DNA from: a virus
Lineage: Duplodnaviria; Heunggongvirae; Uroviricota; Caudoviricetes
Length of the DNA: 64,000 nucleotides
Virus record (IMG/VR): IMGVR_UViG_3300038435_000048
Span: 12,277 to 76,276 of that record
Reading direction: 5' to 3' (one strand)
Below, piece by piece: positions 694 through 64,000 of the stretch. The position numbers and the translations under genes were made by a program. The notes under the pieces are model-generated. The model was not told the DNA's origin, made no database searches, and worked only from the letters and a program-made list of their open reading frames with translations. Numbering within the stretch: the first letter of the stretch is position 1; each line of letters begins with the position of its first letter.

Positions 694-1342
694 TATTCCA
701 GACGATGCCGTTGCTCAAGTACTCGATCAGTACCACCCTCTTGTGCGTTACATAGCCAAGCGGGCCTTTCACTCATCGTCTACACTAGATATCAATGATC
801 TATATCAAGTGGGTGATATGGCGGTGTTGAGAGCGGTGAAAGCATACGATCCCTCTTCTGGTCGCAACATCAAATCGTTCGTGGCAAACTCGATTCGAAA
901 TGCCATCTTCAATGAGGCTGCTCGTTTCCTCGGTGTGTTCACAGTAGATGTTAGAACCACCACTCAAGCCTCCTTCGCTGCCAAGATGCATGAAAAGGGA
1001 AAAAGTGACGAGGAGATTGGGGCGGCATTGACCGAAAAGTATGGTCGTAACTTTGATGCCGAGCACGCACGCGACTTGCGTCTTACCTACAATCGCAGAC
1101 TGTATACGCCGGTTCCGGAACACTTGACTGTTGAAGGTCTTGAGAACGATATTACTATCAAAGAATTGCTTGATAGTGTTGTCAAGGATGAAGTCGATCG
1201 CGTCATTCTTGATAGACGTATTTTGGGTGGTTGCTCCGTTGAACAAACTGCTGCCATTCTTCACATTTCAAAGAAGGCGGTTTCCAAAAAAGAAATCTGC
1301 CTCAAGACTAGAATTAAGCGAGCCCTTGAGGACGCAGCATGA
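683..1342 (+). CDS. RNA polymerase sigma-70 family factor
   Basis: Region 2-like DLYQVGDMAVLRAVKAYDPSSGRNIKSFVANSIRNAI and region 4 HTH ILGGCSVEQTAAILHISKKAVSKKEICLKTRIKRAL. Start chosen at the internal MMVDIPDD, overlapping the upstream stop. Confidence 0.8.
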   Translation: MMVDIPDDAVAQVLDQYHPLVRYIAKRAFHSSSTLDINDLYQVGDMAVLRAVKAYDPSSGRNIKSFVANSIRNAIFNEAARFLGVFTVDVRTTTQASFAAKMHEKGKSDEEIGAALTEKYGRNFDAEHARDLRLTYNRRLYTPVPEHLTVEGLENDITIKELLDSVVKDEVDRVILDRRILGGCSVEQTAAILHISKKAVSKKEICLKTRIKRALEDAA

Positions 1343-10016: not shown

Positions 10017-10804
10017 AGATCATCAGCTTTTGTCTATGGGGCGATAATCCCAAATACAATATTGGTGCCATCAAGAACGCTCAGATCGCACGCGATTTGT
10101 ATCCTGATTGGACTTGTCGGTTTTATTGTTCCGCACTGACTACTCCGATTGACGTGTTGAGGACGTTGTATAGTGTTGATGGTGACGATACATCAACTAC
10201 TACAGCCTCATCATACGATCTTGGATTCCCTGCAATCATGCATACGACTCCCAGTCGTAGAATTCAATTGGTAATAGCACCAATGCGTGATGGTTGGAAA
10301 ATGATGTTCGATCGTTTTCAAGCCGCTTCCGATCCTGACTGCGAAGTAATGATTTCACGAGACTGCGACTCTCGTCTCTCGAAGAGAGAGAAAGCGGCAG
10401 TTGACGAGTGGTTAGCTTCGTCAAAGGCGTGGCACATTATGCGGGATCACCCGTGGCATGGTGCCCTGATGTTAGGTGGCATGTGGGGGGTCAAAGGCTG
10501 CCCCGCAATGACGGATTGGATTTCAGCATGGAATGCCGAAGACCGTTATCAGACTGACCAGGACTTTTTACGTACCAGTGTTTATCCAATTGCTCGTCAC
10601 AACGCAATGATTCATGCACAGTTCTGTGCAGTAGAGCCAGATACAATGCCCTTCCCTAGTATGCGTAGCGGGCTAGAGTTTGTTGGACAAGTATTTGACG
10701 AGAATGATATTACTATTGCCGAACATCAGACAATGCTTATGAAGGCCCTTAAGGGACGCGGGGAACCTATGCGTCTTGAACATCTACCAGAAGGATTACT
10801 ATGA
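10013..10804 (+). CDS. putative GT-A glycosyltransferase (DxD)
   Basis: MKIISFCLWGDNPKYNIG start and a VMISRDCDSRL DxD motif. ATGA overlap with the upstream gene. Confidence 0.45.
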   Translation: MKIISFCLWGDNPKYNIGAIKNAQIARDLYPDWTCRFYCSALTTPIDVLRTLYSVDGDDTSTTTASSYDLGFPAIMHTTPSRRIQLVIAPMRDGWKMMFDRFQAASDPDCEVMISRDCDSRLSKREKAAVDEWLASSKAWHIMRDHPWHGALMLGGMWGVKGCPAMTDWISAWNAEDRYQTDQDFLRTSVYPIARHNAMIHAQFCAVEPDTMPFPSMRSGLEFVGQVFDENDITIAEHQTMLMKALKGRGEPMRLEHLPEGLL

Positions 10805-11262
10805 AGATTATCGCACTGTTTATTTTGTCTTTGTTTGCCGCTCCTCAGAGTAGCAATCCATATTGTGGAACTAGTCCTGACGACTTCTATCCTATCCCTC
10901 AACCTAACTGCCCTAGCACAAGCACGATCGATATCAATTGTGCGGCGGCATGTGCTGATCTGTGGCAGACGGAAATGATGTTGGCATATGATGCGGCGTG
11001 TGCGTCATACGCCGCCGCAGAGGCGGAATGGAATTCTTGGGAAGCTGCCATTCAAGCTGGATATGAAGCCTGTATGGCTGTAGCACAAACGCCTCAAGAT
11101 GGTGTCAATTGTTATAGAACGATGCTACAACAACAAGACGCTAATCAAGATCTATTCGATTTGCGAAAGGGGTATATCGAAGAGGATTTGGCTGATGATG
11201 TGCAGGACGCTATGGACTCGTACAACGACTGTACTGACGACTGCTGCATCAATGGACACTGA
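10801..11262 (+). CDS. secreted Cys-rich acidic protein (signal peptide)
   Basis: N-terminal MKIIALFILSLFAAPQS signal-like segment and many Cys. Confidence 0.45.
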   Translation: MKIIALFILSLFAAPQSSNPYCGTSPDDFYPIPQPNCPSTSTIDINCAAACADLWQTEMMLAYDAACASYAAAEAEWNSWEAAIQAGYEACMAVAQTPQDGVNCYRTMLQQQDANQDLFDLRKGYIEEDLADDVQDAMDSYNDCTDDCCINGH

Positions 11263-11560
11263 TGTTTTAGCTGGCTATGGACAGGACGCTGTGACTAAAG
11301 AGCAGCGTCCGGTCATTGCAGGCGAACACATTTTTAAGTTGATCGATTCTAAAGGTATGCCATTAGATCTCGTTCAAGAGCTACTACAAGAACACAAGCT
11401 GGCCTTTGATGTATATGGTTTTATCAAGGCGGCACGTAAAAGCAAAAACTATTCACGAGAGCGACTGATCAATCTATTGATCCCGATAGACAATAAGATG
11501 TCAGATCAACATCAAGCACTGACACGATTTTGCATAGACAAGGTATACAATGATTCGTAA
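11252..11560 (+). CDS. hypothetical protein
   Basis: Internal Met start (MDTDVLAGYG) immediately after the upstream stop. Confidence 0.35.
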   Translation: MDTDVLAGYGQDAVTKEQRPVIAGEHIFKLIDSKGMPLDLVQELLQEHKLAFDVYGFIKAARKSKNYSRERLINLLIPIDNKMSDQHQALTRFCIDKVYNDS

Positions 11561-12973: not shown

Positions 12974-13566
12974 TGCAAAACTATCGAGTGACTTTTGGCG
13001 GCGAGCAGATCGACTATCACAGCAACTTTGCTGCGTGTCGTGGCTATTGGCCGATCATCAAAGCTGTTCTTGACATTCTACGTACACACGGCATTGAAGA
13101 GGCGTGGTGGTTTTTCGAGCCATACGTAGAGATCACATGGCTCTGCGATGACAAAGAACGTGCTGAGAAGGCGATGGTAGCTGTATCTGGATTGCTTGAA
13201 AGCGAGCAATACAAGTATCAGAAGTTCACGCCGGACGATGGTATCTTCGGCGACTGGCATGGCCTCACTCCAGAGGAGCGTGAATTCGGTGCAAAGCGTT
13301 ACGCAGCCCTTGCCAAGACCTCGACGCACTACTATGAGAACCTTGGGATCATTGAAGGTGGCATGGGCGTCGAGAAGCACTTTGCGAGGGCAACGCACGT
13401 TCTAGCCAATCAGCTAGGCTTGAACTACGAAGCCGAAGGCATCGCACTCCTAAAGCGTGGCTTCTTGTGCATCCTGTTCTATCACCTTGGCCACCAGAAG
13501 GCCGTGGACACATACGAGAAGCTGTTCAAGGAAAAGTACCTGGGCCGCGATGAAGATCTTAGTTAG
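12973..13566 (+). CDS. hypothetical protein (197 aa)
   Basis: Coupled to the 12608 ORF; no clear motif. Confidence 0.45.
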   Translation: MQNYRVTFGGEQIDYHSNFAACRGYWPIIKAVLDILRTHGIEEAWWFFEPYVEITWLCDDKERAEKAMVAVSGLLESEQYKYQKFTPDDGIFGDWHGLTPEEREFGAKRYAALAKTSTHYYENLGIIEGGMGVEKHFARATHVLANQLGLNYEAEGIALLKRGFLCILFYHLGHQKAVDTYEKLFKEKYLGRDEDLS

Positions 13567-14401
13567 TTACCGTGGCATTCCACAGTCGCCCGGCTGGGCG
13601 ACCGGCGATTGCGTCGTGCGTGCGTTTCGAGAACTCGGGCACGACGTGACTCCGTACGGCAACTACTATCAAACACCAAAACGTTTGGAAGATCGTAGCG
13701 TGCTGGCAGAAGATTGGGATCTATTTCTTTTTATGGAATGCGGAGACGGCGATCCAGTCTATACTGAGCTAGCTAATCTACGATCCCGCAAGCGAGCAAG
13801 CTGGTTCTTTGACGCCGCCCTGTATCCTCAGAACTGGCTGGCCATCCTTCGCCTGTTTGAGTTTGATGTCAACTTCATGGCCAACAGCGTCATGCTGTAC
13901 GACAACCTCAACACGGTGTATCTGCCGTATGCCGCAGATCCATTGCATGTACGTCCAGCCGACCACAACAAGTATAGGGCCTTTGGCTTTGTCGGCTCCG
14001 ATAGACCCGATCGTCAAGCACTAGCGGCTCGACTGTCGTTCGCCAATGTAGAGCTAAAGAGCGGCATTTTTCGCGAGGAGTTCATCAGCTATCTCGCCGG
14101 TTCGCGTTACACCATCAACGACATCGCGGGCGGTGGTGCCGGTCTAATCCCCATGAGACCTTTTGAAGCTCTTGCTGCTGGATCATGTCTCATTACCCCC
14201 AAAGACGATGGAGTCAAGTCGCTTGGATTACCGTGTATTGAGTATGGCTCGCAGGACGAGCTAGTCTCTATTTGTCGTCATTTATACGACGACAACATTC
14301 TTCCAGATAGTGCTGGACAAGACGCAGTTTTGCGTGATCATATGTATAGGCACCGTTGTGCTACCATTCTAGAAAAGCTGTTTCCACATGAAAGAGTCTG
14401 A
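13550..14401 (+). CDS. CgeB-like glycosyltransferase (Glyco_trans_1_2-like)
   Basis: MKILVSYRG start; FVGSDRPDRQALAARLS...YTIND resembles the CgeB/YkvP family. Confidence 0.55.
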   Translation: MKILVSYRGIPQSPGWATGDCVVRAFRELGHDVTPYGNYYQTPKRLEDRSVLAEDWDLFLFMECGDGDPVYTELANLRSRKRASWFFDAALYPQNWLAILRLFEFDVNFMANSVMLYDNLNTVYLPYAADPLHVRPADHNKYRAFGFVGSDRPDRQALAARLSFANVELKSGIFREEFISYLAGSRYTINDIAGGGAGLIPMRPFEALAAGSCLITPKDDGVKSLGLPCIEYGSQDELVSICRHLYDDNILPDSAGQDAVLRDHMYRHRCATILEKLFPHERV

Positions 14402-45849: not shown

Positions 45850-47106
45850 TCAAGCAACCTTTCCGTCTTCGATGTAGACTCCCATTCTATCCTGATCGTT
45901 CTTTGAGCGGTATTCAATCCACACTTGAAAGTCTTTGTCTACTGCCATGTCTCGAATCATTGCCATGGCATCATCGTCTAGCAAAGATCCGTCAGCAATT
46001 CTAATTACGCGGAGCGTAGGATTTGCCGCCATCGCAATAGCTAGCGAAATCTTCAAGCGACGTGCTGCTGACGCTTGACAGAACGGCACGTCTTGTCCGT
46101 CGTCATTAATGATGCGGACGCCATCAGCATTGATTGTGAATCCCTTGACGGGCAGTGGAGCCGCTTCTAGAGCCTCGGCCTTCTCAATCTCGATGAGTTC
46201 CATCTTGGCATTCAGCTTGCCAATATCCTCATCCACCTTATCGAGGGACGTACGCAGCTTCTTGTACTCAATGACTTCACGAGCACGCTTGTTGCGTCCC
46301 TCGATATCTTTGAGTTGACCTTGCAGGAAGGCTACGTCAATCGGTTCCACTCTCTCTAGCTCTGCTGTATTAGCCACAGTGATTGTATTAGCGTCAGCTA
46401 CAATCTTTTGAAGTCTTTCTATTTCACGTTGAGCATCGGCAATAGACTTAGCTGAGCGTTCATTCTCGGCAATCAAGTCCTTGATGCGTTGATTGGCACC
46501 TAGACCATGAGTAATTGCTGCCGTCACATCAGAACTAGCGATCTCTTCTGTTGGTTCTTGATCAGTCGGTGGACGTAGGTTAGCCAACAGACTAGCTAGC
46601 TGTTTCTTTTGACGGTTAGCATCGGTACGAGCATCATAAGCTTCCTGCTTACGAGCATCGAAGTCTGCAAGATTCAGTTTGCCATCGGTAATCTTGAAGA
46701 GAACATCTGACAGGAGTGTACGCTGCTCTTGTTCTGTCTTGCGTGCGAACTCCCATGGGTCAAACGAGAGATCGCCAATCATGCCATCAAGTAGTTTTTG
46801 AGGCGATGGCAGTTTAATTCCGTCTGGTGAACGAATCTCTAGCGTACTATCCTCACCAGTAAATCGTCTCGTGGCAATGTAATCGCCTAAATCTAATGAG
46901 ATTAGGCTCTTTGTTTCACCCTTACGGATTGGTTCAGGATTCTTTTTGGCTGCTGCACGATACTCTAACACAGACCAAATTGCATCCAGTACTGATGTCT
47001 TGCCATTCTCATTTTTGCCTGAGATAATGACACAACTATTGTCTGGAGTAATGTCAACGACCTTAAGTCGCTTGTAATTCTCGGCGTGAAACTGGATGAT
47101 TCTCAT
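45850..47106 (-). CDS. SbcC/Rad50-like (AAA_23) recombination ATPase
   Basis: MRIIQFHAENYKRL...ISGKNENGKTSVLDAI Walker A, coiled-coil middle, C-terminal signature/D-loop region. Confidence 0.65.
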   Translation of the reverse strand: MRIIQFHAENYKRLKVVDITPDNSCVIISGKNENGKTSVLDAIWSVLEYRAAAKKNPEPIRKGETKSLISLDLGDYIATRRFTGEDSTLEIRSPDGIKLPSPQKLLDGMIGDLSFDPWEFARKTEQEQRTLLSDVLFKITDGKLNLADFDARKQEAYDARTDANRQKKQLASLLANLRPPTDQEPTEEIASSDVTAAITHGLGANQRIKDLIAENERSAKSIADAQREIERLQKIVADANTITVANTAELERVEPIDVAFLQGQLKDIEGRNKRAREVIEYKKLRTSLDKVDEDIGKLNAKMELIEIEKAEALEAAPLPVKGFTINADGVRIINDDGQDVPFCQASAARRLKISLAIAMAANPTLRVIRIADGSLLDDDAMAMIRDMAVDKDFQVWIEYRSKNDQDRMGVYIEDGKVA

Positions 47107-47489
47107 TGTAGTCCTTCAAAAGATCTGTCAACCTGATTCATTTCACTCAGAAAGGCATCGAGTTCTGCGTAACATTTGTCACACATATCAGCCTCATTGA
47201 GATGTTTGCCGTGTGGGCAATGAGTACGATAAGGTATACCGCACATATGCTGTTCCGAATCACCTTCGCGTGCCCATGATACGGTGTCTCGTTCTACCTT
47301 ACTGCGACCGTCTGGTTCAATCTTGAAGTAATGGCAGACGCCACAAGTGCAGACGCCATGCAACTTCCAGCGTCCACAATCGCCGTCACAGAAGTACTTG
47401 CCGTTATCTAGCTTACGCCATGTACGAATTGGCTCGCCAGTGAATGCTAGCCAAGCCATACGTGCAGTGAATCTTAGTCTACGTATCAT
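47103..47489 (-). CDS. Cys-rich Zn-binding hypothetical protein
   Basis: CDGDCGRW...CTCGVCH. Confidence 0.35.
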   Translation of the reverse strand: MIRRLRFTARMAWLAFTGEPIRTWRKLDNGKYFCDGDCGRWKLHGVCTCGVCHYFKIEPDGRSKVERDTVSWAREGDSEQHMCGIPYRTHCPHGKHLNEADMCDKCYAELDAFLSEMNQVDRSFEGLQ

Positions 47490-51409: not shown

Positions 51410-51892
51410 TTAGTAGTCACCTAAGATAGCTCTAACGATCTTCACTGCGTCAGCTAGGTTGTCCACCCGGTAAGCTACACAATCCCTGATCATTGCGTGA
51501 TCGTGGGGATTTCCCTCTTTCTCCATCACTAGAACCACTGGAATTCTCTCTAGATCTGCCCACGCAACTTCCATACAAGTGCCGATTGACACTCGTTTGG
51601 TGCCGAGCATATTGACTAGGACAACTCCACAATTCGTACAATCAAAACGGTCACGAGACGTGATGCCACGCTCAGTACTCATATTGACAAATGTATTGTC
51701 GTTGAGATCCTTATCTGTATAAGAATCCTTGATGGCACCTGTCTCGCGAAGGTACACCTTCGCTCGCAGCGGAGAAATAGCGGCGATGTTACTGCTGCGG
51801 AGTGCAGCCGTTACTTCGTCACGCCATCCCGTTGATTCCTCATACGATAGACCACTGATTGGCCCCGCTAGATACACTGCTTTTGTTACCAT
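51410..51892 (-). CDS. nucleoside 2-deoxyribosyltransferase-like protein
   Basis: VYLAGPISGLSYEES...W start typical of the family. Confidence 0.6.
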   Translation of the reverse strand: MVTKAVYLAGPISGLSYEESTGWRDEVTAALRSSNIAAISPLRAKVYLRETGAIKDSYTDKDLNDNTFVNMSTERGITSRDRFDCTNCGVVLVNMLGTKRVSIGTCMEVAWADLERIPVVLVMEKEGNPHDHAMIRDCVAYRVDNLADAVKIVRAILGDY

Positions 51893-52407
51893 TTGTATTC
51901 GTTGGCGTCCAGATAGACTTGGACGTGTCTCCTAAGGTGGTTAGCCGCCTTTGGCGGCAGGATGTCTTTATGAGTAGCTCTAATGAATGCTCGCCACGTA
52001 AAGTCTGATGCCGCCGTGCCACGATGTTCGTCGGCTTGATTGAATTTGATCCAGGTTTGTGACTTAATATAACCTGTTCTGAATTGTGTCAGTGGTGCTC
52101 CACTGACCCATAGATACATAGGTAGCGTGAGATTCACTTTATCAAATTGCTGTCGTCCGTCTTCGCGTGGCACATTATCTACGTGCCAATTAGGGATGCA
52201 CGGATACTGCCGTGGCATAAGCATATGCACTTTGACATCCCAGGTAAAGTCATGAACGTTATCTGGAAACGTTGCCATGATTTCTTTCAAGTCTGGCATC
52301 AATTCCATCATGACATTGAACGGTGCTTGGTGAACACCGCAATGCTGCTTGCTCCAATCAATCGGTTTGAGGGAGGGCTGTATCAATTGTTCTGAATTCG
52401 AACCCAT
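51886..52407 (-). CDS. hypothetical protein (possible HxD...H 2OG-Fe(II) oxygenase-like)
   Basis: NWHVDNVPRED ... ADEHRG spacing suggests an HxD...H facial triad. Weak; start uncertain. Confidence 0.3.
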   Translation of the reverse strand: MGSNSEQLIQPSLKPIDWSKQHCGVHQAPFNVMMELMPDLKEIMATFPDNVHDFTWDVKVHMLMPRQYPCIPNWHVDNVPREDGRQQFDKVNLTLPMYLWVSGAPLTQFRTGYIKSQTWIKFNQADEHRGTAASDFTWRAFIRATHKDILPPKAANHLRRHVQVYLDANEYKW

Positions 52408-52594
52408 ACACCTTCTCCAGTTCCTTGACGATGGCAATGAAATGTGGCATGGCAGACTCTTTACCGCCTCTAACCAGATTAGACTCGGCAATAGCTAGGT
52501 TCGACAGCACGACGCAATACTCTTGCTGTAGACGTGCAGCCTTATCGTTGTGCGTGTAGACAATACGCAGTGGTTTGTTCTCAGGATTTTTCAT
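52358..52594 (-). CDS. hypothetical small protein
   Basis: ORF. Confidence 0.3.
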   Translation of the reverse strand: MKNPENKPLRIVYTHNDKAARLQQEYCVVLSNLAIAESNLVRGGKESAMPHFIAIVKELEKVYGFEFRTIDTALPQTD

Positions 52595-52845
52595 TCCACA
52601 CTACTCACTTTTTTCACGGTCCAAGTAATACAATCTGTCAAAATACTCTCTTCGCTGAACCACTCGCCGGCCAGCGTCATGATTCTTCGATTGCAGAAGT
52701 CGTTTGCTAGCTCCTGAGATTCAAACGGTCCCCACACAATCGGCCACTTGCGTGCCGGCGTGTTGATACCTAGCTCCAACACTACCCAGTGCTCAATCGA
52801 CCGCGATTGTTTTGGTTTGCTCATCCTTAACCTTGTCCAGTACAA
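52591..52845 (-). CDS. hypothetical small protein
   Basis: ORF. Confidence 0.3.
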   Translation of the reverse strand: MYWTRLRMSKPKQSRSIEHWVVLELGINTPARKWPIVWGPFESQELANDFCNRRIMTLAGEWFSEESILTDCITWTVKKVSSVE

Positions 52846-53872
52846 TCTTCCAAATCTTATCGTTCATTGGCTTGGCGTCCATGAGACCAAACACAATACC
52901 CGTTAGGACGTTCGGCGTGTTAGCCTGGATCCATAGAGCCTTCGTCTTACGATCCCCTTCTGGGATTCGTGCAACGATATCCTCAGCCTCGATACGAAGC
53001 TTGTCGTGCATGGTCTGCACGTACGCACGGATATCATCGAAGTCTTGCTGGATTCCCTTCGGTAATTCCAGCAAGGTAACACCGAATTCCTTGCCACGGA
53101 TTAGTTCAATGACACCCTTAGGGCTCATGTAGTTTAGCAAGCGGTGGACTCGTAGATATGCAGGCGACTTCACCTTTACGCGGCGACCGCTTGCAAAGCG
53201 AGCGACGTAACCTTCTGCGTTTTCCTCGAAAGGAATTTCGCCACGAAGGTCCACGTTATAGCGGCGAGGGCGACGAAAGCCACACTTCTCCGCGATTTGA
53301 TCTACCCTACGAGGGTGCCACTCCTCGCCGCTAAGCTCGAAAATGGCTAGCAGAGACAAGAAGCTTTCGCCTTGATAGTCTACAACGATACGGTTCGAAG
53401 GATAGATGATCTCGAATACTGGCGTACAATTCTTAGGCAGATGCTCTAGACCGTCGCGATATTGTAGATTCAACATCAACGTACCATGGAATGCTTGATC
53501 AGACTCCATGCTGCCCGGCGTGGACAAACGCCACTCGGGATGTACCTTGTTCAATCCAGGCGTAAAGTAGCCAATGCCGCACGAGCCGTCTACCTTTTCG
53601 TAGATCTCCACTTCCTCATGCCATGGCAGATTTTCTACCATGGATTCTGAAACCTCACCGAGGTTAAAGAACTTGGAAAATGGGCGTGCAACGACAGTGC
53701 CGTCCTCACGCATGATTAGACCGCGAGCCTGACGGTTTACGTCGTTCCAAAGCCCTTGGATATGAGTATCCTGGGTGTACTTGAAGATGGCGAGGTCGCC
53801 CGAGCGTTGAACGCTCACGCGGCCCTCGTCCACTTCCTTCAAGAGCGACTTGTATAGAATGTAGTCCTTCAT
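52793..53872 (-). CDS. RNA ligase, Rnl1-like (tRNA repair ligase)
   Basis: Motif I YEKVDGS (KxDG), motif IV EGYVARF, motif V RVKVKSP. Confidence 0.6.
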   Translation of the reverse strand: MKDYILYKSLLKEVDEGRVSVQRSGDLAIFKYTQDTHIQGLWNDVNRQARGLIMREDGTVVARPFSKFFNLGEVSESMVENLPWHEEVEIYEKVDGSCGIGYFTPGLNKVHPEWRLSTPGSMESDQAFHGTLMLNLQYRDGLEHLPKNCTPVFEIIYPSNRIVVDYQGESFLSLLAIFELSGEEWHPRRVDQIAEKCGFRRPRRYNVDLRGEIPFEENAEGYVARFASGRRVKVKSPAYLRVHRLLNYMSPKGVIELIRGKEFGVTLLELPKGIQQDFDDIRAYVQTMHDKLRIEAEDIVARIPEGDRKTKALWIQANTPNVLTGIVFGLMDAKPMNDKIWKIVLDKVKDEQTKTIAVD

Positions 53873-53962: not shown

Positions 53963-55213
53963 TCACATAACCTTGGATCTTGCTTGTTCCATCTTGGCAC
54001 GAATCTTATCGCCGTCCTTTAGAACAGCGAACTGATCTCCCTTGACACTACGGAATCTAGCAGCGGCGTCAAGCATAGCCTGACGTTGCGGATAGGGTTG
54101 GTCGTGAAACAGAGGACCCCGACCTTGAGCGTCAGCTTGTGCGGCCAACGTCACACGTTCGACCATAGCGTCGCCGTGTGCGGCACCTAGACGTTCAAGT
54201 ATACGAACCTTCGTCGTTGGACGAAGCTCCATAAACTTGTGGACATTCAAGTGTTCGCGTGAAGCGGCAACCCCCACGTCTCGCATCGTGTTTGGTGCCT
54301 TAACCCTATCACAAAACTTGTGAACCAGAGGTACGCCAAGTGCTTCGTGATTGTAGTGGTGCGGCAGGTTGTCGTCGTCCGTTACAGCCTTGCCCAGATC
54401 ATGGACAAGCGAAGCGAACATGGTAGCATCATCGGCTCCCAATTCACGGGCTCTATCCACAACCAGCAACGTATGCACGAATGCATCGCCTTCCGGGTGA
54501 TACTTCTCAGGTTGAACGCGACCCTTTAGAGCAGCGATTTCTGGGAATACAATGTCAAGACACTGGAACGCATCCAGCACTTCGAAGAACTGACTAGGCT
54601 TATCCGAACGGAGGGCCTTCATAAGCTCATCGAAGACACGCTCTTGCGAGAGCGTGGGAAGCTCGAAACTCAAGTATTGACACATGCGAATTAGCTCTTG
54701 CGAAGGCTGAAAGCCAAGCTGGGCTGCGAACCTTGCGGCACGCAGAACGCGAAGCGGATCCTCCACGAAGTGGTCGCTCACTGGACGCAATACCTTTGCG
54801 AGCAAATCCTTTTGCCCACCATACGGGTCAATGATTTCGCCATGAATAGGCTCCATGGCAATCGCATTGATCGTAAGGTCACGACGGAATAGATCTTGTT
54901 CAAGCGTGACGTTTTGCGTCTCGCAAACAAAACCCGTGTGTCCTTGTCCCATCTTGCGTTCGACGCGAGCCAGGGCAATCTCGACACCATCGACAATCAC
55001 AATAGGGAAGTCCTTGCCCACGGCGTCGCCGTTAGGGAAAAGTTCCAGCAATTGTGGCATCGTCATACCGACGACGCACAAGTCGATGTCCTTGGCCGTC
55101 TTACCCATAAGGTAGTCCCGAACGCTGCCACCGACAACGTACGAACGCCCACCGGCCCCGTGAATGCGGGCCAGGATGGCAACCAGATTATCCCATTCAG
55201 GAACCTGTCTCAT
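53963..55213 (-). CDS. cca: CCA tRNA nucleotidyltransferase with HD domain
   Basis: GGSVRDYLMGKTAKDIDLCV, RRDLTINAIAM head motifs; HD domain FASLVHDLGK. Confidence 0.8.
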   Translation of the reverse strand: MRQVPEWDNLVAILARIHGAGGRSYVVGGSVRDYLMGKTAKDIDLCVVGMTMPQLLELFPNGDAVGKDFPIVIVDGVEIALARVERKMGQGHTGFVCETQNVTLEQDLFRRDLTINAIAMEPIHGEIIDPYGGQKDLLAKVLRPVSDHFVEDPLRVLRAARFAAQLGFQPSQELIRMCQYLSFELPTLSQERVFDELMKALRSDKPSQFFEVLDAFQCLDIVFPEIAALKGRVQPEKYHPEGDAFVHTLLVVDRARELGADDATMFASLVHDLGKAVTDDDNLPHHYNHEALGVPLVHKFCDRVKAPNTMRDVGVAASREHLNVHKFMELRPTTKVRILERLGAAHGDAMVERVTLAAQADAQGRGPLFHDQPYPQRQAMLDAAARFRSVKGDQFAVLKDGDKIRAKMEQARSKVM

Positions 55214-55232
55214 AGCAAACTATACCATACGG

Positions 55233-55679
55233 TTACGGCGTCGTCAACTTCTTTCTCAGTTCCATGAGAAGCTTGCCCAGGAAATTGTTTCCCTTCCCAT
55301 TGCACACTCCCCAGTAGGTGTCGCCCCAGGCATTACCTTCAATCAATTCGGCATCGCCTGTCGCAATCAGTGCCTTACGAAGATCGTCATTGTCGAATTT
55401 AGCTTCCAAAATAGAAGCCATCTGAGCGAGCTTAATCTTGTCCCAATTAGGACGAAGCTCTAGAGCTTGTCCAAGGTGCTTGGACATTCCCGCAGTCATA
55501 AAAGGAAACGTAAAGACGTAACGTGCTTTTTGATTCAGAGTTTTGGCTGCTTGGTATGCGTGCTCAGAGGAGGGATAGACATGCCCCTCATAAACCACAG
55601 AGCAAGCATAGAAGTTACTGAGAAACTGATACTCGCCATCAAACTTATCGATCTTCATAGCGACTGCACTCCGTGACAA
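55233..55679 (-). CDS. NADAR (YbiA/DUF1768) domain protein
   Basis: FLSNFY...EHAYQAAK ... GDTYWG motifs. Confidence 0.65.
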   Translation of the reverse strand: MSRSAVAMKIDKFDGEYQFLSNFYACSVVYEGHVYPSSEHAYQAAKTLNQKARYVFTFPFMTAGMSKHLGQALELRPNWDKIKLAQMASILEAKFDNDDLRKALIATGDAELIEGNAWGDTYWGVCNGKGNNFLGKLLMELRKKLTTP

Positions 55680-55926
55680 CGTTGAAGACTAGTGGCGACA
55701 CAATAGGACCAGCCTGAGACCGCCAGAAACAAACTGACCGCACCTTGCTAAGGTCAACGGACATTTGCGTAAACCCCGGCTTGTCCTCCTCGCCGTCAAA
55801 CGGATCGCCCGGCACGATTCCTGGCTGAACGAACGTTTGGAGATCCTGTTCGAACAAGACCATGCCGTGCTTGCAATTCCAGCACTTGCTATCCTGCGGC
55901 TTTGCTACTTCTTCATTCTCCGGCAT
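55645..55926 (-). CDS. hypothetical protein with CxxC
   Basis: ORF with a CWNCKHG motif. Confidence 0.3.
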   Translation of the reverse strand: MPENEEVAKPQDSKCWNCKHGMVLFEQDLQTFVQPGIVPGDPFDGEEDKPGFTQMSVDLSKVRSVCFWRSQAGPIVSPLVFNVVTECSRYEDR

Positions 55927-56428
55927 ATTCTTCTTCACTTTCAAGCGGTTGGTATTTGTTGATTTGCTTTTGCACAACTTCAATGCTAACGCCATGAGCG
56001 TTCCGAGAAGCAAAGAGCTTAGCGTCCCATGGCCCCTTGATACGATAGACCTTTACTTCGTATCCGAATTCCTTGGCGAACGCCAAATAGGGATTGAGTT
56101 CCCAACGGGTCATGCTCGTATTGGACACGACCAAAAGCTCTTCGTCTCGTTCCATAGCGGCTCGCACACGATGCTGACAGTCGCCATGTGCCTGTCCTAG
56201 CTTAGCCGCATCGAACTGATACGTACCATTCTTGTAGAAGAAATGGTCAGCTTCGAACACACGTTCGTCCACGCCACTGTCATACTCACTACCGAGTAGC
56301 TTATGAGCGAGGGTAGACTTGCCAGACCCCGAGGGACCACGAATGATGATAAGCTTCTTCATCCTTCCATAATACCACGAGAGCGACCCTTCGTCAAGGT
56401 CGCTCTCGTTTTTTCTTGAAACAGACAA
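55913..56428 (-). CDS. P-loop polynucleotide-kinase-like kinase (AAA_33)
   Basis: LIIIRGPSGSGKSTLAHKL Walker A; size and pattern like the Pnk kinase domain or zeta toxin. Confidence 0.55.
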   Translation of the reverse strand: MSVSRKNESDLDEGSLSWYYGRMKKLIIIRGPSGSGKSTLAHKLLGSEYDSGVDERVFEADHFFYKNGTYQFDAAKLGQAHGDCQHRVRAAMERDEELLVVSNTSMTRWELNPYLAFAKEFGYEVKVYRIKGPWDAKLFASRNAHGVSIEVVQKQINKYQPLESEEEYAGE

Positions 56429-56431
56429 GAC

Positions 56432-56818
56432 TCAGAAGAGTTTGCCTTCTCCTGTGCCAGCCGTAGCCTCAGCGGGAGCACCTTCCTTGTCAGCGGGCTT
56501 ACCGCTACCGACAAAGCTGAATCCGCCATAGTTTTCGAGCACGACTTCTAGCTTGGAACGCTTCTCGCCTTCCTTCGTCTCCCAACGGTTTTGACGCAGG
56601 GAGCCCTTCACTAGCACTTGCTTGCCCTTCGTGAAGTATTCCTTGATGGCTTCGACTTGCTTGCCGAAAGCCACACAGTCAACGAATGCCGTTTCCTTCT
56701 TTTCGCCAAAGCCATTGTTAACGGCGATGGTAAAGCGGGCCACGTTTTCTTCCTTGCCGACGATCTCAGGATCAGCGACCAAGTTACCTTGCAAAGCTAC
56801 CAAATTCAAACTAGTCAT
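56432..56818 (-). CDS. ssb: single-stranded DNA-binding protein
   Basis: LNLVALQGNLVADPE...RFTIAVN OB fold and an acidic/Gly-rich C-terminal tail. Confidence 0.85.
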   Translation of the reverse strand: MTSLNLVALQGNLVADPEIVGKEENVARFTIAVNNGFGEKKETAFVDCVAFGKQVEAIKEYFTKGKQVLVKGSLRQNRWETKEGEKRSKLEVVLENYGGFSFVGSGKPADKEGAPAEATAGTGEGKLF

Positions 56819-56825
56819 ATCTACC

Positions 56826-57197
56826 TCAGTTAGTTACGGTTTGTGACGCCTTTACTGAGGCGATCACTTCTTGAAGAGCCTGCTCACGAGTGAGCACGCC
56901 ATCCTTGTGTCGTTGGCATTGCTCACGATTCATGCGGAATCTACGGGCTACGCCTGTCTCCGCTTTCACTCGTTCCGAGAAATTCTCTACCGTCAAACCA
57001 TCAGCTAGATAGATCGACAGCGGAATCTCAGGCTTACGGGGCTTGAGGTTAGCGGCTCCACCGCTAGCCAAAAACTCAGCAAATGCCTGCTCTCTAGTCA
57101 GAGTACCATTTGCAATACGTTCGTGCTGTGAATTGTTCACACGAAAACGATATCCAGTCTTCGCATTGAAGTTCTCCAGCGTTAGTTCATCACTCAT
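56826..57197 (-). CDS. hypothetical protein with a tandem ~55-aa internal duplication
   Basis: Repeats NGTLTREQAFAEFLAS / DGVLTREQALQEVIAS. Confidence 0.4.
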   Translation of the reverse strand: MSDELTLENFNAKTGYRFRVNNSQHERIANGTLTREQAFAEFLASGGAANLKPRKPEIPLSIYLADGLTVENFSERVKAETGVARRFRMNREQCQRHKDGVLTREQALQEVIASVKASQTVTN

Positions 57198-57311: not shown

Positions 57312-58193
57312 TCAAGGCTTCATATTCAGCATCGTGGCAAAGTCGCCTCCCATGACCTGGGGCGGCGTACCATTCCACTTCTCGATCGTGCGGTAACGTA
57401 CGAGTTCTGGTGTAAGCGACTTGGTGAGTTCTAGGTTGCCTCGGGCCTCAAGCTGCATCGCTTCAAAACGACCTTGAGCCTCAATAATCACGGACTGGCT
57501 ACGGCCACGGGCGGTTTCAATCGCTTGGTCGGCTTCGGCCTTCGATTGTACGACCTTGTTCTGGGCAGAGATGGCAAACTGCGTCGCTTCAATAGTCGCA
57601 TTGATACTACCCATGACGCTCTTGTCGGCACGCGGAGCACCAACGAAAGACACCATTTCGAACTTGAAGCCAAGATGGCCTAGACGGCTATTGAGATCAT
57701 TCGTGACGTTTTCGAGCAGACCTTGCTTGCCAGAGCCGAAAATATCAATCACTCGTACCATGCTCGCATGACGGTTGAACGCATTGCGAACTTCCGAGCG
57801 TAGATAGACCAAGGTGATATCTTCGATGCCCTTGCGGAATTCCACGAAAACGTGCGGGACCTTTTCCGGATCAATCGCATAGCTGATCGCAACGTCAGCA
57901 TTTACGATGGCACCCTCAGAAGAGTTAAACGTGATGCTTTCGTCAGCATCGCCAGCACTGCTGTCCGGGCCTTCGTTCGGATCCTTCGTCCATACCACGT
58001 TCTGACGGAACGTCGGGAATTTGTAGACATCCTCAGTGAAGATGTTGTACCAAACGCGACCAGTCTGAATCGGGAAGTCGTCTACTCCCTTTTGACTGCC
58101 GTATTGGTTGACCTTGATCCCGACGTAGCCGGGTTCCACCTTGGTGCAGGCAACGGCCAGCAGAGCAAGACACGCAATCAGCATATTCTTCAT
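57312..58193 (-). CDS. SPFH/band-7 domain lipoprotein
   Basis: Lipobox LLAVAC; SPFH core plus a C-terminal Ala/Glu-rich coiled coil (AQNKVVQSKAEADQAIETARGRSQSVIIEAQG). Confidence 0.65.
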   Translation of the reverse strand: MKNMLIACLALLAVACTKVEPGYVGIKVNQYGSQKGVDDFPIQTGRVWYNIFTEDVYKFPTFRQNVVWTKDPNEGPDSSAGDADESITFNSSEGAIVNADVAISYAIDPEKVPHVFVEFRKGIEDITLVYLRSEVRNAFNRHASMVRVIDIFGSGKQGLLENVTNDLNSRLGHLGFKFEMVSFVGAPRADKSVMGSINATIEATQFAISAQNKVVQSKAEADQAIETARGRSQSVIIEAQGRFEAMQLEARGNLELTKSLTPELVRYRTIEKWNGTPPQVMGGDFATMLNMKP

Positions 58194-58194
58194 G

Positions 58195-58386
58195 TCAGAT
58201 GAATTTCTTGATAGAAAACTTGAGAATGTGAAAATCCACAAAGATGATCAGAACGATCAAAAACAAGCCTGCAATGTTAGCGAGCGTATTAGCCGCCGAC
58301 ATTAGGAAGGCTAGCAGGTCCAACCCCAGAAGTGAAACAATCACTAGCAGGACTAGACTTGAAATGAATAGAAAGGGGTGTTTCAT
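58195..58386 (-). CDS. small multi-TM membrane protein (NfeD-like partner?)
   Basis: Hydrophobic FLFISSLVLLVIVSLLG...IAGLFLIVLIIFV; coupled to the SPFH gene. Confidence 0.4.
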   Translation of the reverse strand: MKHPFLFISSLVLLVIVSLLGLDLLAFLMSAANTLANIAGLFLIVLIIFVDFHILKFSIKKFI

Positions 58387-59462
58387 AGGTCTTCGTTCGC
58401 ACGGAACACGATACCAACCGGGAAACGCGGAACGCCGTCGTCGGTGCGATCGAAGAAGCGGACCGTCAGTTTCTTGCCAATGAATTTCTTGTTTTGGGCA
58501 AACATGCGGCGACGTTCGTCCATCGTCACCTTCATGGTGCAATCGAAGGTTTCGTCGTTTGTATCATTCTGGCAAATCCAGATAATACCACCCTCCATCT
58601 TGCCGCGACCCTCTTTGGCTCCAATTACCTTGAATTCGGCATCTTGGAATTCCTTGACCTTGAGCAATTCCGATGAACGATAACCCCAGAGGTAGCGACC
58701 ATGATATAGCCGCAGAATTGCACCTTCATAGCCCTCTTGCATAAATTCGCCATATCGCAGAATCATCTCATCGTGCGACTTGACGTTGTATCCTGGCACA
58801 AGCTCTACATTAATAGAGGTTTTCACACTATGCATCATAAGACGATCGGCATATGTGAGGCCGTCTTCGCCATCTAGCACTGGCACGTCATAGACGTTAT
58901 AGATAATCTTTTCGCTACCGGGCTGCCACTTCTTAACAAGAGAAGTCACTTGTTGACAGGTCATACCGTGTCGATAAAGCTCGCCATCGAGCACCATATC
59001 CTTAGGCAGCCATTTAGCTAATTGCTCTTCTACCGTTGGCATATTCCAAGGTAGGCCAGATCGCGAAGTCAGTAGAATCTTATTGCCTGACCATTCGGCT
59101 AAACAACGTACGCCGTCTAGCTTAGGCTGTACCCAAGCCGGGAATTCTACCTTTTTCTTTTTGTCTTCGTACTTATGAGCTAACATCGGAAGCCGCAGTT
59201 CTTCCTGGGCGTCTTCCTTGGTTTCGCTGTATTTTCTCTTGACCTTGAAACGCCAGAGCGATTCAGCCTCGGCTTGGGCCTGAGACTCAGGTGTGGTCTC
59301 GTTCGACCGTCCTACGTTCTTGGAGACGGCTTTTTTCGAGGACGTTTGAAGCTTTCCACCAACCTGACCGTATTCGGTGTAGATTGTGTCCTTTTCGTGC
59401 CAAACACGCCACTGACGAAGATCGCCGCCTTTGGCTTTATGGTATAAGATGGGAAGTTTCAT
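58383..59462 (-). CDS. ATP-dependent DNA ligase (minimal T7/Chlorella-virus type) with an N-terminal extension
   Basis: KLDGVR motif I; C-terminal KEFQDAEFKVIG and GKKLTVRFFDRTDDGVPRFPVGIVFRANED match ChV ligase motifs. Confidence 0.75.
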   Translation of the reverse strand: MKLPILYHKAKGGDLRQWRVWHEKDTIYTEYGQVGGKLQTSSKKAVSKNVGRSNETTPESQAQAEAESLWRFKVKRKYSETKEDAQEELRLPMLAHKYEDKKKKVEFPAWVQPKLDGVRCLAEWSGNKILLTSRSGLPWNMPTVEEQLAKWLPKDMVLDGELYRHGMTCQQVTSLVKKWQPGSEKIIYNVYDVPVLDGEDGLTYADRLMMHSVKTSINVELVPGYNVKSHDEMILRYGEFMQEGYEGAILRLYHGRYLWGYRSSELLKVKEFQDAEFKVIGAKEGRGKMEGGIIWICQNDTNDETFDCTMKVTMDERRRMFAQNKKFIGKKLTVRFFDRTDDGVPRFPVGIVFRANEDL

Positions 59463-60562
59463 TAGTGGTGCTCCGTGCCACCCTTACGGGTGAGGTAATC
59501 GGGCGAAATCACCTTGAAGATACGACGCTTCGGATTCGGATCAAGTTCACCACGACCCCAGGTTTCTTCACCTAGCGGACGCACGACGATCCCTTCCTTA
59601 ATTTGACCAGGAGACAGTACGCTCTCACCTTCTGCCATTTCACACAATTCCTCGAAAGTGTAAAAAGAAGGATTTAGGTGTGGCACAATTGGGATGCCGT
59701 ATAGCGTGCATACCTCGCGAACATACGTCCACGGCAGATAGTCACCATTAATGGCAATGTCAAAAACACGCCAAGCCTTTTCCGTGCCGTATGTCAAGTC
59801 CTGTACGCCAGGACCAAAGATTTCACCAAAGAAGATTACCGACTTAACCTCGACGGGAGGCTTGTCGCCCATAATCTCTGGAATAATCTTGTCAAACGTG
59901 GCGTTATCAAGGGCTTCGCCATAAAGCTCGAAAGGCAAGCCATACACGCCGCTATCTTCGACTTTGCGTTGCGTGCGGTGTGAGCCGACAACTCTTTCAA
60001 GGTAATCGCTCATCCCACCATTTTCAGGATCGGGAGTTCGCACCCAACCAACACGACTATTTGAGCCGTGTAGCTTTTCGGTCACGATCAAAGGATCGCC
60101 GTAATTCAGAGCACGCGGATAATTTCGCAAGTTCTGAATATCCGTGTACGTATGGAACAGCGGGTGATTGCGGGACATCTGCCCCGCCTGCATGCCGATC
60201 GGCACGGGCTCTTCGTACTTTTCGATACCAAGGGCTTCGGCGAGATTAGTGTCGACTTCTGCATTCGTGTCGTTAGGAGCTAAAAATCCGAAACTTGGTG
60301 CTCCTCTGAGCCGCACGCACTTTACACGTCCTTTGGTGGCGTCTTTTTTCCATGAAAGGTAAGGTGTAACCGCCCATTGATCTGCCAATTCCTTAGGCAC
60401 CATCACATCAGGCGGCACATGTATCGCGGTTTGGCCCGCAATATAGTTTCCCTTGCCAGATACGATTTGCCAGCCGCCAAGCCTGATAATTTCAAGCTTA
60501 TCAGCATTCGGATGCGGCAGTACCTCGTCGATCACGACGACTCTCACTAGAAGATCGCTCAT
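59462..60562 (-). CDS. RNA ligase (Rnl5/Rnl2-like) with an N-terminal tRNA-binding OB domain
   Basis: N-terminus VIDEVLPHPNADKLEI...QIVSG matches the Trbp111/CsaA-type tRNA-binding domain. Motif I VTEKLHGSN, motif IV EGIVVRP, motif V KRRIFKV. Confidence 0.6.
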   Translation of the reverse strand: MSDLLVRVVVIDEVLPHPNADKLEIIRLGGWQIVSGKGNYIAGQTAIHVPPDVMVPKELADQWAVTPYLSWKKDATKGRVKCVRLRGAPSFGFLAPNDTNAEVDTNLAEALGIEKYEEPVPIGMQAGQMSRNHPLFHTYTDIQNLRNYPRALNYGDPLIVTEKLHGSNSRVGWVRTPDPENGGMSDYLERVVGSHRTQRKVEDSGVYGLPFELYGEALDNATFDKIIPEIMGDKPPVEVKSVIFFGEIFGPGVQDLTYGTEKAWRVFDIAINGDYLPWTYVREVCTLYGIPIVPHLNPSFYTFEELCEMAEGESVLSPGQIKEGIVVRPLGEETWGRGELDPNPKRRIFKVISPDYLTRKGGTEHH

Positions 60563-62609: not shown

Positions 62610-64000
62610 TTACTCTGAAACGCGAGCCCGAATTTGGGCGAGCGTATTTTGGAAGCCTTCGCGACCGTCTTCAAAGACGACGTTGAAGGAACAATTGTTG
62701 ACTTGGTACCAAGATGCCTGTTGCGTCATCTTGATGCCTTCGCCGGGCATATTGTATACAGCAATAAGACCCTTCGCGGACTTCTTGCTGAAAGCACCCT
62801 TGTTCGTCTTCGGATCTTTGAAGATCTCACGGTCTTCGGTATTCACCACGCCGAAGGTGGCCTTCATTGCAAAACCGAAGGTGTCGCGAGTGTTGTACTG
62901 ATACGTGTAGCTGCCGATACCGGCGACCCAGTTCGTGCTGGCGAAGCCCTTGGCCTTGAGAGCCGCGTTGATTCGCTTGGCGAGGTCTCGCGTGATCGAG
63001 TCACCGTAGATGAGGCCGATGTGCGAGTCAAGCTCACGGTAGCCAGCGGCGTTCGTGGTACCTCCGAAGAGTTCCCACAGGACTTCGATCGACCCCTTGA
63101 ATTCCGGCGAGCCGGGCGTTGCGTCAGGATCGCCGCAGATGATCTCCAAGGGCGTCTTGGGCGACGAGTCGGGGCGAATGACAAGCTTGCCGTTTCGAGC
63201 CAGAATCTCGCCCTTGAGTTGCGGCAAAATAGTGGTCAAAACTCCCCAGTAGTCCCAAGTGTCCGACACAACCGACAGGATGCCATTCGGGTAGAGCGAG
63301 AAGAGGCGACGGAAGGTCTCGATTTCGCCTTCCTTGGTCCCCATGCACATGACCGAGTGCTCAGTCGCCGGAACGCTCACTCCGACCAATTCCTTGTCGG
63401 AATCGGCGAAGTAATACTGTTCCAAGAATTCGATCGCAGGAACGGTATCCGTTCCAGCGAACGAGAGAAGGTGACCGGCACCGCTCAGGCAAGCCGACTC
63501 AAGGCTCGACATCCCACGGAACGAGAAGTCGTGGCCCTGGAACATCGTGAAGTCCTGCGAGCCACCAGTTTCACTGGCTGCTCGCAAAAATTCCTTGCGG
63601 TATTCGCGGGCGATCGTGGCCGACGTGCAAGCCTGCCACAGCGTGCAAGACAGGATCGTTTCCAGGTAGTTCGGGAGCCAGAATCCGCTCTCGTGCGTGC
63701 TGTGAATCACGACGGGCGGCGTTCCGATCGGCACTCGCGTGCCTTCCGGCAGGGCCAGAATTCGAATCGGCAGATATCCGAGAGCGTGAAGCTCTCGGAT
63801 GTGATCCATCGGCACGGCATCTTTGCCGAGGGCGTTGTCCACACGACGCTTGTACTTCGCGACCACTTCTTCGACGGGACGCGAGAAGAAATTCTCGTTC
63901 CACTGCTTGACCAAGTATTCCTTGATGAAATACTGGAGGCCGAAGAACACCACGCTGTCCACGCCTTCCAGGCGAGACGAACGAGGCGTGAAGTTCGAGA
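62610..64000 (-). CDS. nadV: nicotinamide phosphoribosyltransferase, 5'-truncated by the window edge
   Basis: VVFFGLQYFIKEYL, GTDTVPAIE, ATEHSVM, IYGDSIT align with the NAMPT family. The N-terminus with the DSYK motif lies beyond the window. Confidence 0.75.
   Translation of the reverse strand, partial: SNFTPRSSRLEGVDSVVFFGLQYFIKEYLVKQWNENFFSRPVEEVVAKYKRRVDNALGKDAVPMDHIRELHALGYLPIRILALPEGTRVPIGTPPVVIHSTHESGFWLPNYLETILSCTLWQACTSATIAREYRKEFLRAASETGGSQDFTMFQGHDFSFRGMSSLESACLSGAGHLLSFAGTDTVPAIEFLEQYYFADSDKELVGVSVPATEHSVMCMGTKEGEIETFRRLFSLYPNGILSVVSDTWDYWGVLTTILPQLKGEILARNGKLVIRPDSSPKTPLEIICGDPDATPGSPEFKGSIEVLWELFGGTTNAAGYRELDSHIGLIYGDSITRDLAKRINAALKAKGFASTNWVAGIGSYTYQYNTRDTFGFAMKATFGVVNTEDREIFKDPKTNKGAFSKKSAKGLIAVYNMPGEGIKMTQQASWYQVNNCSFNVVFEDGREGFQNTLAQIRARVSE

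Follow-up and report, generated by a model that had tools for sequence, protein, structure and literature searches.

What is the function of a NADAR-family protein whose gene sits among tRNA-repair genes of a phage? The gene in question lies in the window analysed here, a stretch of 64 kb (64,000 nucleotides) of viral DNA. The initial annotation proposed the protein as a candidate anti-DarT factor or, alternatively, as a processor of ADP-ribose products of RNA repair. Both halves of this interpretation are already in the literature. On DNA, NADARs hydrolyse the ADP-ribose attached to guanine N2, and they serve as antitoxins to DarT1 (PMC11543638). YbiA, a sigma-70-linked NADAR and T4 gp30.3 are active on ADP-ribosylated guanine in vitro, but YbiA and T4 gp30.3 did not protect uninfected cells from DarT1 (PMC11125620). 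Phage orphan NADARs, termed AdfN, counter DarTG1 (Johannesman et al. 2025, PMC11825919). In that study, AdfN-Bas32 neutralised DarT1 unaided and allowed three phages to plate again on DarTG1 hosts. The chemistry extends to RNA, since ADP-ribosylation of RNA guanosine is reversed in vitro by NADARs including YbiA and T4 gp30.3 (PMC11833690), and that of cytidine by YbiA-type NADARs (PMC12945103). De Souza & Aravind (2012) and Iyer et al. 2022 (PMC9503650) noted that the gene neighbourhoods of phage NADARs are associated with RNA repair and NAD salvage, and the latter paper gives the share of medium and jumbo phages with a NADAR as 48%.

The gene itself was delimited first by its start codon. 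A minus-strand ORF covers positions 55233-55679 and encodes 148 aa if read from a TTG codon, and this span had been taken as the gene. The ORF is real. Its proposed start did not hold, 55679 being an upstream TTG, and translation almost certainly begins at the ATG of position 55658, giving a protein that opens with MKIDKFDG. Three observations argue for this ATG: a GGAG motif lies upstream of it, an identical JGI gene call of 141 aa exists (P0001, on a contig of 76,276 bp), and the homologues begin at the same residue as the 141-aa version. The GGAG motif falls within the 3' end of the upstream gene, which encodes a small protein with four cysteines (Cys4 protein). The ATG is located 14 nt inside that upstream ORF, and the same 14-nt overlap was found in four related contigs (L098, L099, L101 and L102). 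A scan for promoters and terminators was not informative, since it counted 16 promoter-like sites where 10 +/- 3.5 would be expected. The coordinates of the gene and its neighbours are collected in the table.

Table. Features around the NADAR gene, ordered from high to low window coordinates, which for these minus-strand genes is the order of transcription.
Feature	Position	Strand	Evidence and remarks
NadV (nicotinamide phosphoribosyltransferase)	62610-63962	(-)	phrog_448, E=2e-171; NF006629, 485 bits against a cut-off of 405
Rnl5/DraRnl-type RNA ligase	59462-60562	(-)	
ATP-dependent DNA ligase	58383-59462	(-)	
SPFH protein	57312-58241	(-)	
Repeat protein	56826-57197	(-)	
SSB	56432-56818	(-)	
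PNK-like P-loop kinase, kinase domain only	55913-56362	(-)	AAA_33, E=5e-11; phrog_505 (polynucleotide kinase), E=1.7e-11
Cys4 protein, 93 aa (CxxC...C...C)	55645-55926	(-)	clade-specific; immediately upstream of NADAR
GGAG, Shine-Dalgarno-like	55669-55672	(-)	10 nt 5' of the NADAR ATG; read from sequence
NADAR-family gene	55233-55658	(-)	141 aa + stop; start revised from TTG 55679 to ATG 55658
CCA-adding tRNA nucleotidyltransferase with HD domain	53963-55213	(-)	PolyA_pol, PolyA_pol_RNAbd, HD; 19 nt downstream of NADAR
T4 RnlA-type RNA ligase 1	52793-53872	(-)	PF09511, E=2e-17; T4 Rnl1 structures 2c5u and 5tt6, E ~1e-12

The assignment to the NADAR family proved correct. All three motifs on which it had been based occur in the protein: FLSNFY spans residues 12-17, EHAYQAAK residues 32-39 and GDTYWG residues 112-117. 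With PF08719 (NADAR, DUF1768), whose cut-off is 35.1 bits, the protein scores 76.5 bits (E=3.6e-21), and the alignment runs from profile position 8 to 162 out of 163, so that a chance match is out of the question. It also matches phrog_1017 (E=8.6e-41) and E. coli YbiA (PDB 2b3w, E=1e-20). AlphaFold2, run with 40 homologues, gave a model with a pLDDT of 97 and a pTM of 0.90. When the model was compared with the PDB by Foldseek, YbiA (2b3w) was matched with a TM score of 0.85 and the NADAR-ADPr complex of P. nicotianae (8bau) with one of 0.82. There was no further match at E<1, and the protein thus has a YbiA-like alpha+beta fold. In the model, the 141-aa chain begins directly at the core hairpin and forms a minimal YbiA-like core lacking any N-terminal extension. 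Its calculated pI is near neutral (7.7), compared with 9.0 for AdfN-Bas32, a difference that does not discriminate between NADAR types. Homologues were found in 465 phage records and in 309 stretches of IMG/VR. Apart from the identical JGI call, the closest match in a collection of 5.8 billion proteins has at most 78% identity.

The window is a segment of a phage genome, with mostly small and tightly packed ORFs, several PHROG matches and relatives among IMG/VR viral contigs. A megablast search with 5 kb around the NADAR gene gave no match in 50,697 phage records; the phage has no cultured close relative, and its clade is uncultivated. A 602-aa ORF (1339-3147), picked as a possible terminase, gave a single tblastn match (23% identity), which is annotated as a glycosyltransferase. 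The neighbours of the NADAR gene are all encoded on the minus strand. The tRNA-repair cluster is real, and it is interleaved with genes of DNA replication and repair. Further downstream, at lower coordinates, follow genes for a nucleoside deoxyribosyltransferase-like protein, a dNMP kinase, an exonuclease, UDG, peptide deformylase and PhoH, among others. The P-loop kinase gave a weak full-length match to the kinase domain of T4 PNK (1ly1, E=0.0035). The CCA enzyme aligned to NF008137, the multifunctional CCA addition/repair protein, with E=3e-115 and 385 bits, which is below the cut-off of 451. For the Cys4 protein only 11 homologues were found, the AlphaFold2 model had a pLDDT of 57, too low for its fold to be searched, and searches against family profiles gave no match. 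Together, the PNK-like kinase, the RnlA-type ligase and the HD-domain CCA enzyme resemble the healing and sealing of tRNA by Pnkp and Rnl1 of T4, a pathway which in its canonical form has no NADAR member. No tRNA genes were detected in the 64-kb window. NadV had been placed near the window end, and this call stands, with the NF006629 score above its cut-off and the phrog_448 match. Its proposed union with NADAR in one module was not borne out: NadV lies 7 kb and about ten genes away, with unrelated genes between. NadV and NADAR share a counter-defence theme and do not form a demonstrable module.

For the active site, residue roles were mapped onto 8bau following Schuller et al. 2023 (PMC11543638). 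The P. nicotianae residues E43, K50, W89, E125, D130 and W133 correspond to E32, K39, W72, E107, D113 and W116 of the window protein. Across 44 homologues with 46-78% identity, E32, K39, K60, W72, E107, N109, W111, D113 and W116 are invariant, and this invariance of the catalytic residues argues for selection on catalysis. One pyrophosphate contact of the P. nicotianae enzyme, R79, is replaced by Gln64; this position varies among the homologues (R in 25, Q in 8 and K in 8 of the 44). At the position that defines the subfamilies (P. nicotianae E125) the window protein carries Glu107, as in YbiA, and neither the Asp of the DarT1-linked DarG1/BC4488 type nor the His of the T4 type. The loop signature E-G-N-x-W-G-D-T-Y-W-G-V-C is common to the window protein and AdfN-Bas32 and absent from YbiA. 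The NCBIfam equivalog-domain model TIGR02464, for the N-glycosidase of riboflavin intermediates, scored 63.0 bits, under its cut-off of 73.7. Two models of defence NADARs from PADLOC and NCBIfam gave weak matches at superfamily level, PDC-M42C with E=1e-7 and DS32_2 with 40.7 bits against a cut-off of 240, and membership in either was rejected.

Among characterised NADARs, the closest relative by sequence is AdfN-Bas32 (bas33_0070, QXV80081.1), the anti-DarT factor NADAR of T5-like Markadamsvirinae phages (PMC11825919). The two proteins share 46% identity over their full length (127 bits, E=2e-43). The window protein and E. coli YbiA are 40% identical (84 bits, E=2e-26), as are AdfN-Bas32 and YbiA (70 bits, E=3e-21), and these pairwise scores pair the window protein with AdfN-Bas32. 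Both are of similar size (141 and 149 aa), neither has an N-terminal extension, and the catalytic set of Glu, Lys, Glu, Asp and Trp is identical. Both are also phage orphans without an adjacent toxin, encoded among early genes of nucleotide and DNA metabolism. However, AdfN-Bas32 belongs to an unrelated phage lineage and is surrounded by genes for RNR, thymidylate synthase and RNase H, with no RNA ligase and no CCA enzyme in its neighbourhood, unlike the window. It is also the more basic protein, and has Arg where the window protein has Gln64.

The other characterised members are more distant. YbiA shares the minimal core fold and the Glu at the subfamily-defining position, but differs in the loop motif (window EGNAWGDTYWGVC, YbiA EHTENDAYWGDG). 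The window gene is phage-borne and not part of a LexA-controlled dinG-ybiB operon, and its product falls below the TIGR02464 cut-off. YbiA, unlike AdfN-Bas32, did not protect against DarT1 in vivo (PMC11125620). BLASTP gave no significant alignment between the window protein and T4 gp30.3 (AdfN-T4), and in a multiple alignment the two are 23% identical. AdfN-T4 is likewise a phage orphan NADAR of about 150 aa that is expressed with early genes, and T4 adfN lies three genes from the DNA ligase gene 30, as the window gene shares its block with SSB and DNA ligase. The T4-type protein, however, has His (LKHS in T4 30.3) at the position of Glu107 (alignment; PMC11543638), and AdfN-T4 is fully active only with the help of other T-even factors. 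The antitoxins of the DarG1/BC4488 type (E. coli C7, G. lovleyi; PMC11543638) belong to the same superfamily and have the same predicted chemistry on guanine N2. Judged from the published criteria rather than by sequence alignment (PMC11543638), the window protein differs from them in having no basic N-terminal DNA-binding extension and in the Glu that replaces the catalytic Asp (D171 in C7). Its gene has no adjacent DarT1, being flanked by the Cys4 and CCA genes.

Conservation of the gene order was then examined in related phages. In the relatives that were found through NADAR itself (L098, L099/L100, L101 and L102, contigs of 113-173 kb), the order of kinase, Cys4 protein, NADAR, CCA enzyme and Rnl1 is kept. 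Relatives found through the CCA enzyme served as an unbiased sample, which comprised eight clade members with CCA identities of 57-77%. Only two of them, L090 and L105, carry NADAR. In the other six (L091, L092/L095, L093, L094 and L106) the Cys4 gene directly joins the CCA gene so that a NADAR gene would not fit between them, and none was found within 10 kb. The core of kinase, Cys4 protein, CCA enzyme and Rnl1 is kept whether NADAR is present or not. In at least seven related contigs NADAR occupies the same position, with 62-71% identity, a divergence that tracks that of its neighbours and thus indicates an old, stably placed but dispensable insert. Other junctions of the block hold HNH genes (recognised by sequence inspection only), SPFH and DUF4406 genes and, in L098, genes with the precomputed Pfam labels Acb5 and Gad2. 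These varied genes mark the block as an insertion hot spot. A 201-aa ORF of the window (51886-52491, phrog_1843) was considered as Gad2 and rejected, as it shares no homology with the L098 gene that bears the Gad2 label.

Outside the clade, this NADAR subfamily was found within 10 kb of the CCA gene in 3 of 79 phage CCA loci. Conversely, 83 other phage NADAR loci were searched within 8 kb, and a CCA enzyme was present in three, Rnl1 in three, an Rnl5-like ligase in three and NadV in six. A rough chance estimate is about 6%, from a NADAR prevalence of 48% in medium and jumbo phages and a 20-kb span that covers about 1/7 of such a genome. Co-occurrence of NADAR and the CCA enzyme outside the clade is therefore at about chance level. 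Two unrelated contigs do pair the genes: they are adjacent in L067 and one gene apart in L006, with the RNA-repair gene RlaP near. Across 84 phage NADAR loci, no neighbour family occurred in more than seven. The Cys4 protein was rejected as a conserved NADAR partner, as the upstream ORFs of these 84 loci do not cluster with it. Around 80 bacterial and archaeal homologues, the 144 flanking genes fell into 89 Pfam families, none of which occurred more than twice, and RibA, RibD and DarT were not among them. The described embedding in a tRNA-repair cluster is thus real as to the cluster and the adjacency, whereas a functional link is not supported, given the six of eight relatives that have the core alone and the chance-level co-occurrence. 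NADAR is a free-standing accessory gene, and its place in the repair operon is lineage-specific.

We estimate a probability of roughly 0.5 that the protein is an active ADP-ribosyl N-glycohydrolase of the orphan-antitoxin (AdfN) type, which would act in counter-defence by stripping guanine ADP-ribose from single-stranded phage DNA. The gene is a phage-encoded orphan without an adjacent DarT, and its product is related to the validated AdfN-Bas32. The anti-DarT role suggested by the initial annotation fits this evidence, in that a relative with 46% identity has the role and the catalytic residues are conserved. Presence/absence polymorphism, which is typical of accessory counter-defence genes, further supports it, as does the location among genes for SSB, DNA ligase, UDG and exonuclease. 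For activity, substrate and target system in vivo we infer the following course. NADAR would be made early, together with the replication and repair proteins. A DarT1-like ADP-ribosyltransferase of the host would mark guanines of single-stranded phage DNA. In the active site, K39, W72, K76, D113 and W116 would hold the ADP-ribose pyrophosphate, as judged from the P. nicotianae structure and the mutagenesis of the E. coli C7 NADAR (PMC11543638), and E32 and E107 would hold the distal ribose. The N-glycosidic bond between ribose C1'' and the nucleobase nitrogen (guanine N2) would then be hydrolysed to free ADP-ribose and an unmodified base, so that replication could continue. The near-neutral pI and the missing counterpart of the basic DNA-binding extension of DarG1 count against this role. 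Moreover, YbiA, which is 40% identical and has the same catalytic set, fails against DarT1 in vivo, and so does gp30.3; sequence therefore does not predict specificity in vivo. The tight placement between RNA-repair genes would suit an RNA substrate equally well.

An RNA substrate is assumed by the reading in which a host ART toxin modifies tRNA or other RNA and NADAR clears the ADP-ribose from the guanosine or cytidine bases, adding a 'healing' step to the work of the kinase, Rnl1 and the CCA/HD enzyme encoded in the same operon. The published activities on RNA guanosine and cytidine adducts are consistent with it, and so are the 14-nt overlap with the upstream gene of the repair core, the 19 nt to the CCA gene, the position kept in the clade and the NADAR genes near CCA enzymes in L067 and L006. 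Nevertheless, the direct Cys4-CCA junctions show that the core exists without NADAR, proximity to the CCA gene outside the clade (3/79 and 3/83) is near the chance estimate, and no anti-phage system that ADP-ribosylates RNA guanine or cytidine was found in the publications consulted. We consider this reading unlikely. Somewhat more doubtful is its stronger form, that NADAR was recruited to the tRNA-repair operon and reverses damage done to guanosine or cytidine by an RNA-targeting host ART, and the comparative data do not favour it. If it were true, the cassette of kinase, Cys4 protein, NADAR, CCA/HD enzyme and Rnl1 would mend both cleaved and ADP-ribosylated tRNA, implying an undescribed anti-phage system that ADP-ribosylates RNA bases. 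The anti-DarT reading, by comparison, has a validated relative, and the same relative bears on an explanation taken from YbiA, that of a housekeeping N-glycosidase destroying riboflavin intermediates (5-amino-6-ribosylamino-uracil phosphates). The identity to E. coli YbiA and the YbiA-type catalytic Glu speak for such a function, and homologues in JGI and GenBank bear names such as 'ribA/ribD-fused uncharacterized protein', 'N-glycosidase YbiA' and 'riboflavin biosynthesis protein'. It is improbable, given that the TIGR02464 score stays below the cut-off, that the window contains no riboflavin genes, that RibA/RibD account for 0 of the 144 neighbours of the 80 homologues, that it is not obvious why a lytic phage should require control of riboflavin damage, and that the nearer relative AdfN-Bas32 has a demonstrated role in counter-defence.

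The protein could also hydrolyse a small molecule, a diffusible NAD-derived immune signal or a toxic by-product (a signal of the cADPR type, or ADPr>p from KptA-type RNA repair), and so complement the regeneration of NAD+ by NadV. NadV shares a gene block with NADAR in the window and also in L098, L099, L101 and L105, as it is within 8 kb at the six other NADAR loci counted above, and the associations reported by Iyer et al. were counted in support. Against this, the activities of NADARs tested on ADP-ribose conjugates all concern base-linked adducts of nucleic acids (PMC11543638, PMC11125620, PMC11833690), our literature search found no reported activity on immune signals, and unrelated genes fill the 7 kb to NadV. 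No SLOG partner was detected among the window ORFs scanned. Processing of ADP-ribose products of RNA repair, as put forward by the initial annotation, requires KptA/Tpt1. Pfam domains of KptA/Tpt1, Macro, 2H, Nudix and ART/DarT were absent from the roughly 50 window ORFs scanned, a set that leaves out about 30 plus-strand ORFs. A KptA-linked RNA-repair module would pair KptA with 2H or Macro and conserve NADAR alongside; no such partner was found among these ORFs and NADAR is not co-conserved, and this part of the interpretation is not supported. A small-molecule substrate as a whole we likewise regard as unlikely. The least probable reading, and a very improbable one, is a non-catalytic binder of ADP-ribose that blocks an NAD-dependent defence effector. 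It has a precedent, as Carabias et al. 2024, in the form in which they are cited in PMC11825919, describe a phage NADAR that inhibits Retron-Eco1 without enzymatic activity. All catalytic residues are invariant in the 44 homologues, which speaks against it, though binding of ADPr would use several of the same residues.

In summary, the NADAR gene is intact and is a fresh member of a known counter-defence family, and it does not represent a new system. The anti-DarT role, the chemistry, the distribution in phages and the contextual associations of the family are already published, and the sole route to something new would be the RNA substrate. The locus also calls for caution, as the tight packing of NADAR into an operon of repair genes proved to be no sign of a conserved functional tie. 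NADAR rather has the character of an optional gene at an insertion hot spot, as counter-defence genes usually do. If the AdfN role is true, an uncultivated clade of phages of about 100-170 kb joins the carriers of orphan-antitoxin-like NADARs, and this would suggest that DarT1-like guanine ADP-ribosylation exerts selection well beyond enterobacterial hosts.

All relatives of the clade, with NADAR present or absent, have the PNK-like kinase on one side of the 93-aa Cys4 protein and the CCA enzyme on the other. Among 5.8 billion proteins only 11 homologues were found, and family searches with the protein gave no match. The AlphaFold2 (AF2) model was poor (pLDDT 57). The protein may belong to the tRNA-repair core as a component that is so far uncharacterised. 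The 123-aa repeat protein upstream of SSB is likewise kept across the clade. In the family search it had no significant match, the TA_inhibitor/Gp4.5 hit being weak and not significant (E = 0.048).

Coordinates of the features in the window and in other phage loci
Feature	Position	Strand	Remarks
93-aa protein with four conserved Cys	55645-55926	-	CxxC...C...C, C-terminal ECSRYE
123-aa protein, two internal repeats of ~45 aa each	56826-57197	-	…T[LV]ENF…G.LTREQA…
SPFH/HflK-like membrane protein	57312-58241	-	1.6 kb upstream of NADAR
NadV	62610-63962	-	
418-aa ABC-type ATPase (AAA_15/AAA_23)	45850-47106	-	ORF 47103-47489 upstream
153-aa ORF	11099-11560	+	PF01411 (class II alanyl-tRNA synthetase family), E = 1.3e-7, short match, profile positions 377-432
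Glyco_trans_1_2 ORF	13457-14401	+	domain scan
SPFH/HflK-like gene, Ochrobactrum phage vB_OspM_OC	L001:4594-5445		~600 bp upstream of NADAR gene
6-pyruvoyl-tetrahydropterin synthase (annotated), Xanthomonas phage BUDD	L002:826-1335		5 kb upstream of NADAR gene
Acb5-labelled gene, relative L098	L098:9690-9935		between CCA enzyme and Rnl1; precomputed Pfam label
Gad2-labelled gene, relative L098	L098:11465-12142		within gene block matching the window's; precomputed Pfam label

An SPFH/HflK-like gene lies close to NADAR both in the window and in phage vB_OspM_OC, and the two SPFH proteins are 30% identical. The latter phage has a genome of 228 kb and is unrelated to the window phage. Since SPFH was seen near NADAR in only 1 of the 83 comparison loci, this proximity is probably a coincidence. 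In L012, L013, L070 and related phage loci, ORFs within 5 kb of NADAR resemble QueE and QueD on inspection of the sequence alone; QueE and QueD act in 7-deazaguanine synthesis. A connection of pathways that modify guanine with a hydrolase of guanine-ADPr would be possible. Outside phages, four separate, stand-alone copies of the window's NADAR subfamily were found on one Bryobacterales chromosome (OZ241991.1; loci L225, L235, L246 and L256), with 45-47% identity to the window protein. Planctomycetes MAGs were heavily represented among the genome matches.

The NadV ORF of the window as listed begins ~40 residues into the family profile and encodes 450 aa, compared with 489-497 aa in the relatives L098 and L101. 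In a further relative, L099, the gene is in two pieces. The NARP2 pathway needs an NMNAT partner. None was seen within the window, and the partner may lie beyond the window end.

On the plus strand between ~1300 and 21700, sugar-modifying genes appear unusually abundant for a phage. The domain scan in this region covered one ORF (Glyco_trans_1_2), and ORF 1339-3147 matches a gene annotated as glycosyltransferase. By eye, several other translations resemble glycosyltransferases, methyltransferases and sugar-nucleotide dehydratases or epimerases. The 153-aa ORF is only a possible gene, because it overlaps the adjoining ORF 10801-11262.

The N-terminal part of the 418-aa ATPase matches defence ATPases of the AriA/PtuA/GajA type in PADLOC (AriA, E = 1.7e-9). 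It is a candidate phage-borne ATPase of the OLD/PARIS-like type.

In the 173-kb close relative L098, the gene block holds an Acb5-labelled and a Gad2-labelled gene, and neither family occurs at the corresponding positions in the window. Both labels are named after anti-defence proteins. Other junctions of the block are filled by HNH-like genes in the relatives L090, L091 and L102, judged by sequence, with an HNH Pfam label (HNH_3) in L102 only. The gene block thus has the look of a hot spot at which accessory and counter-defence genes insert.
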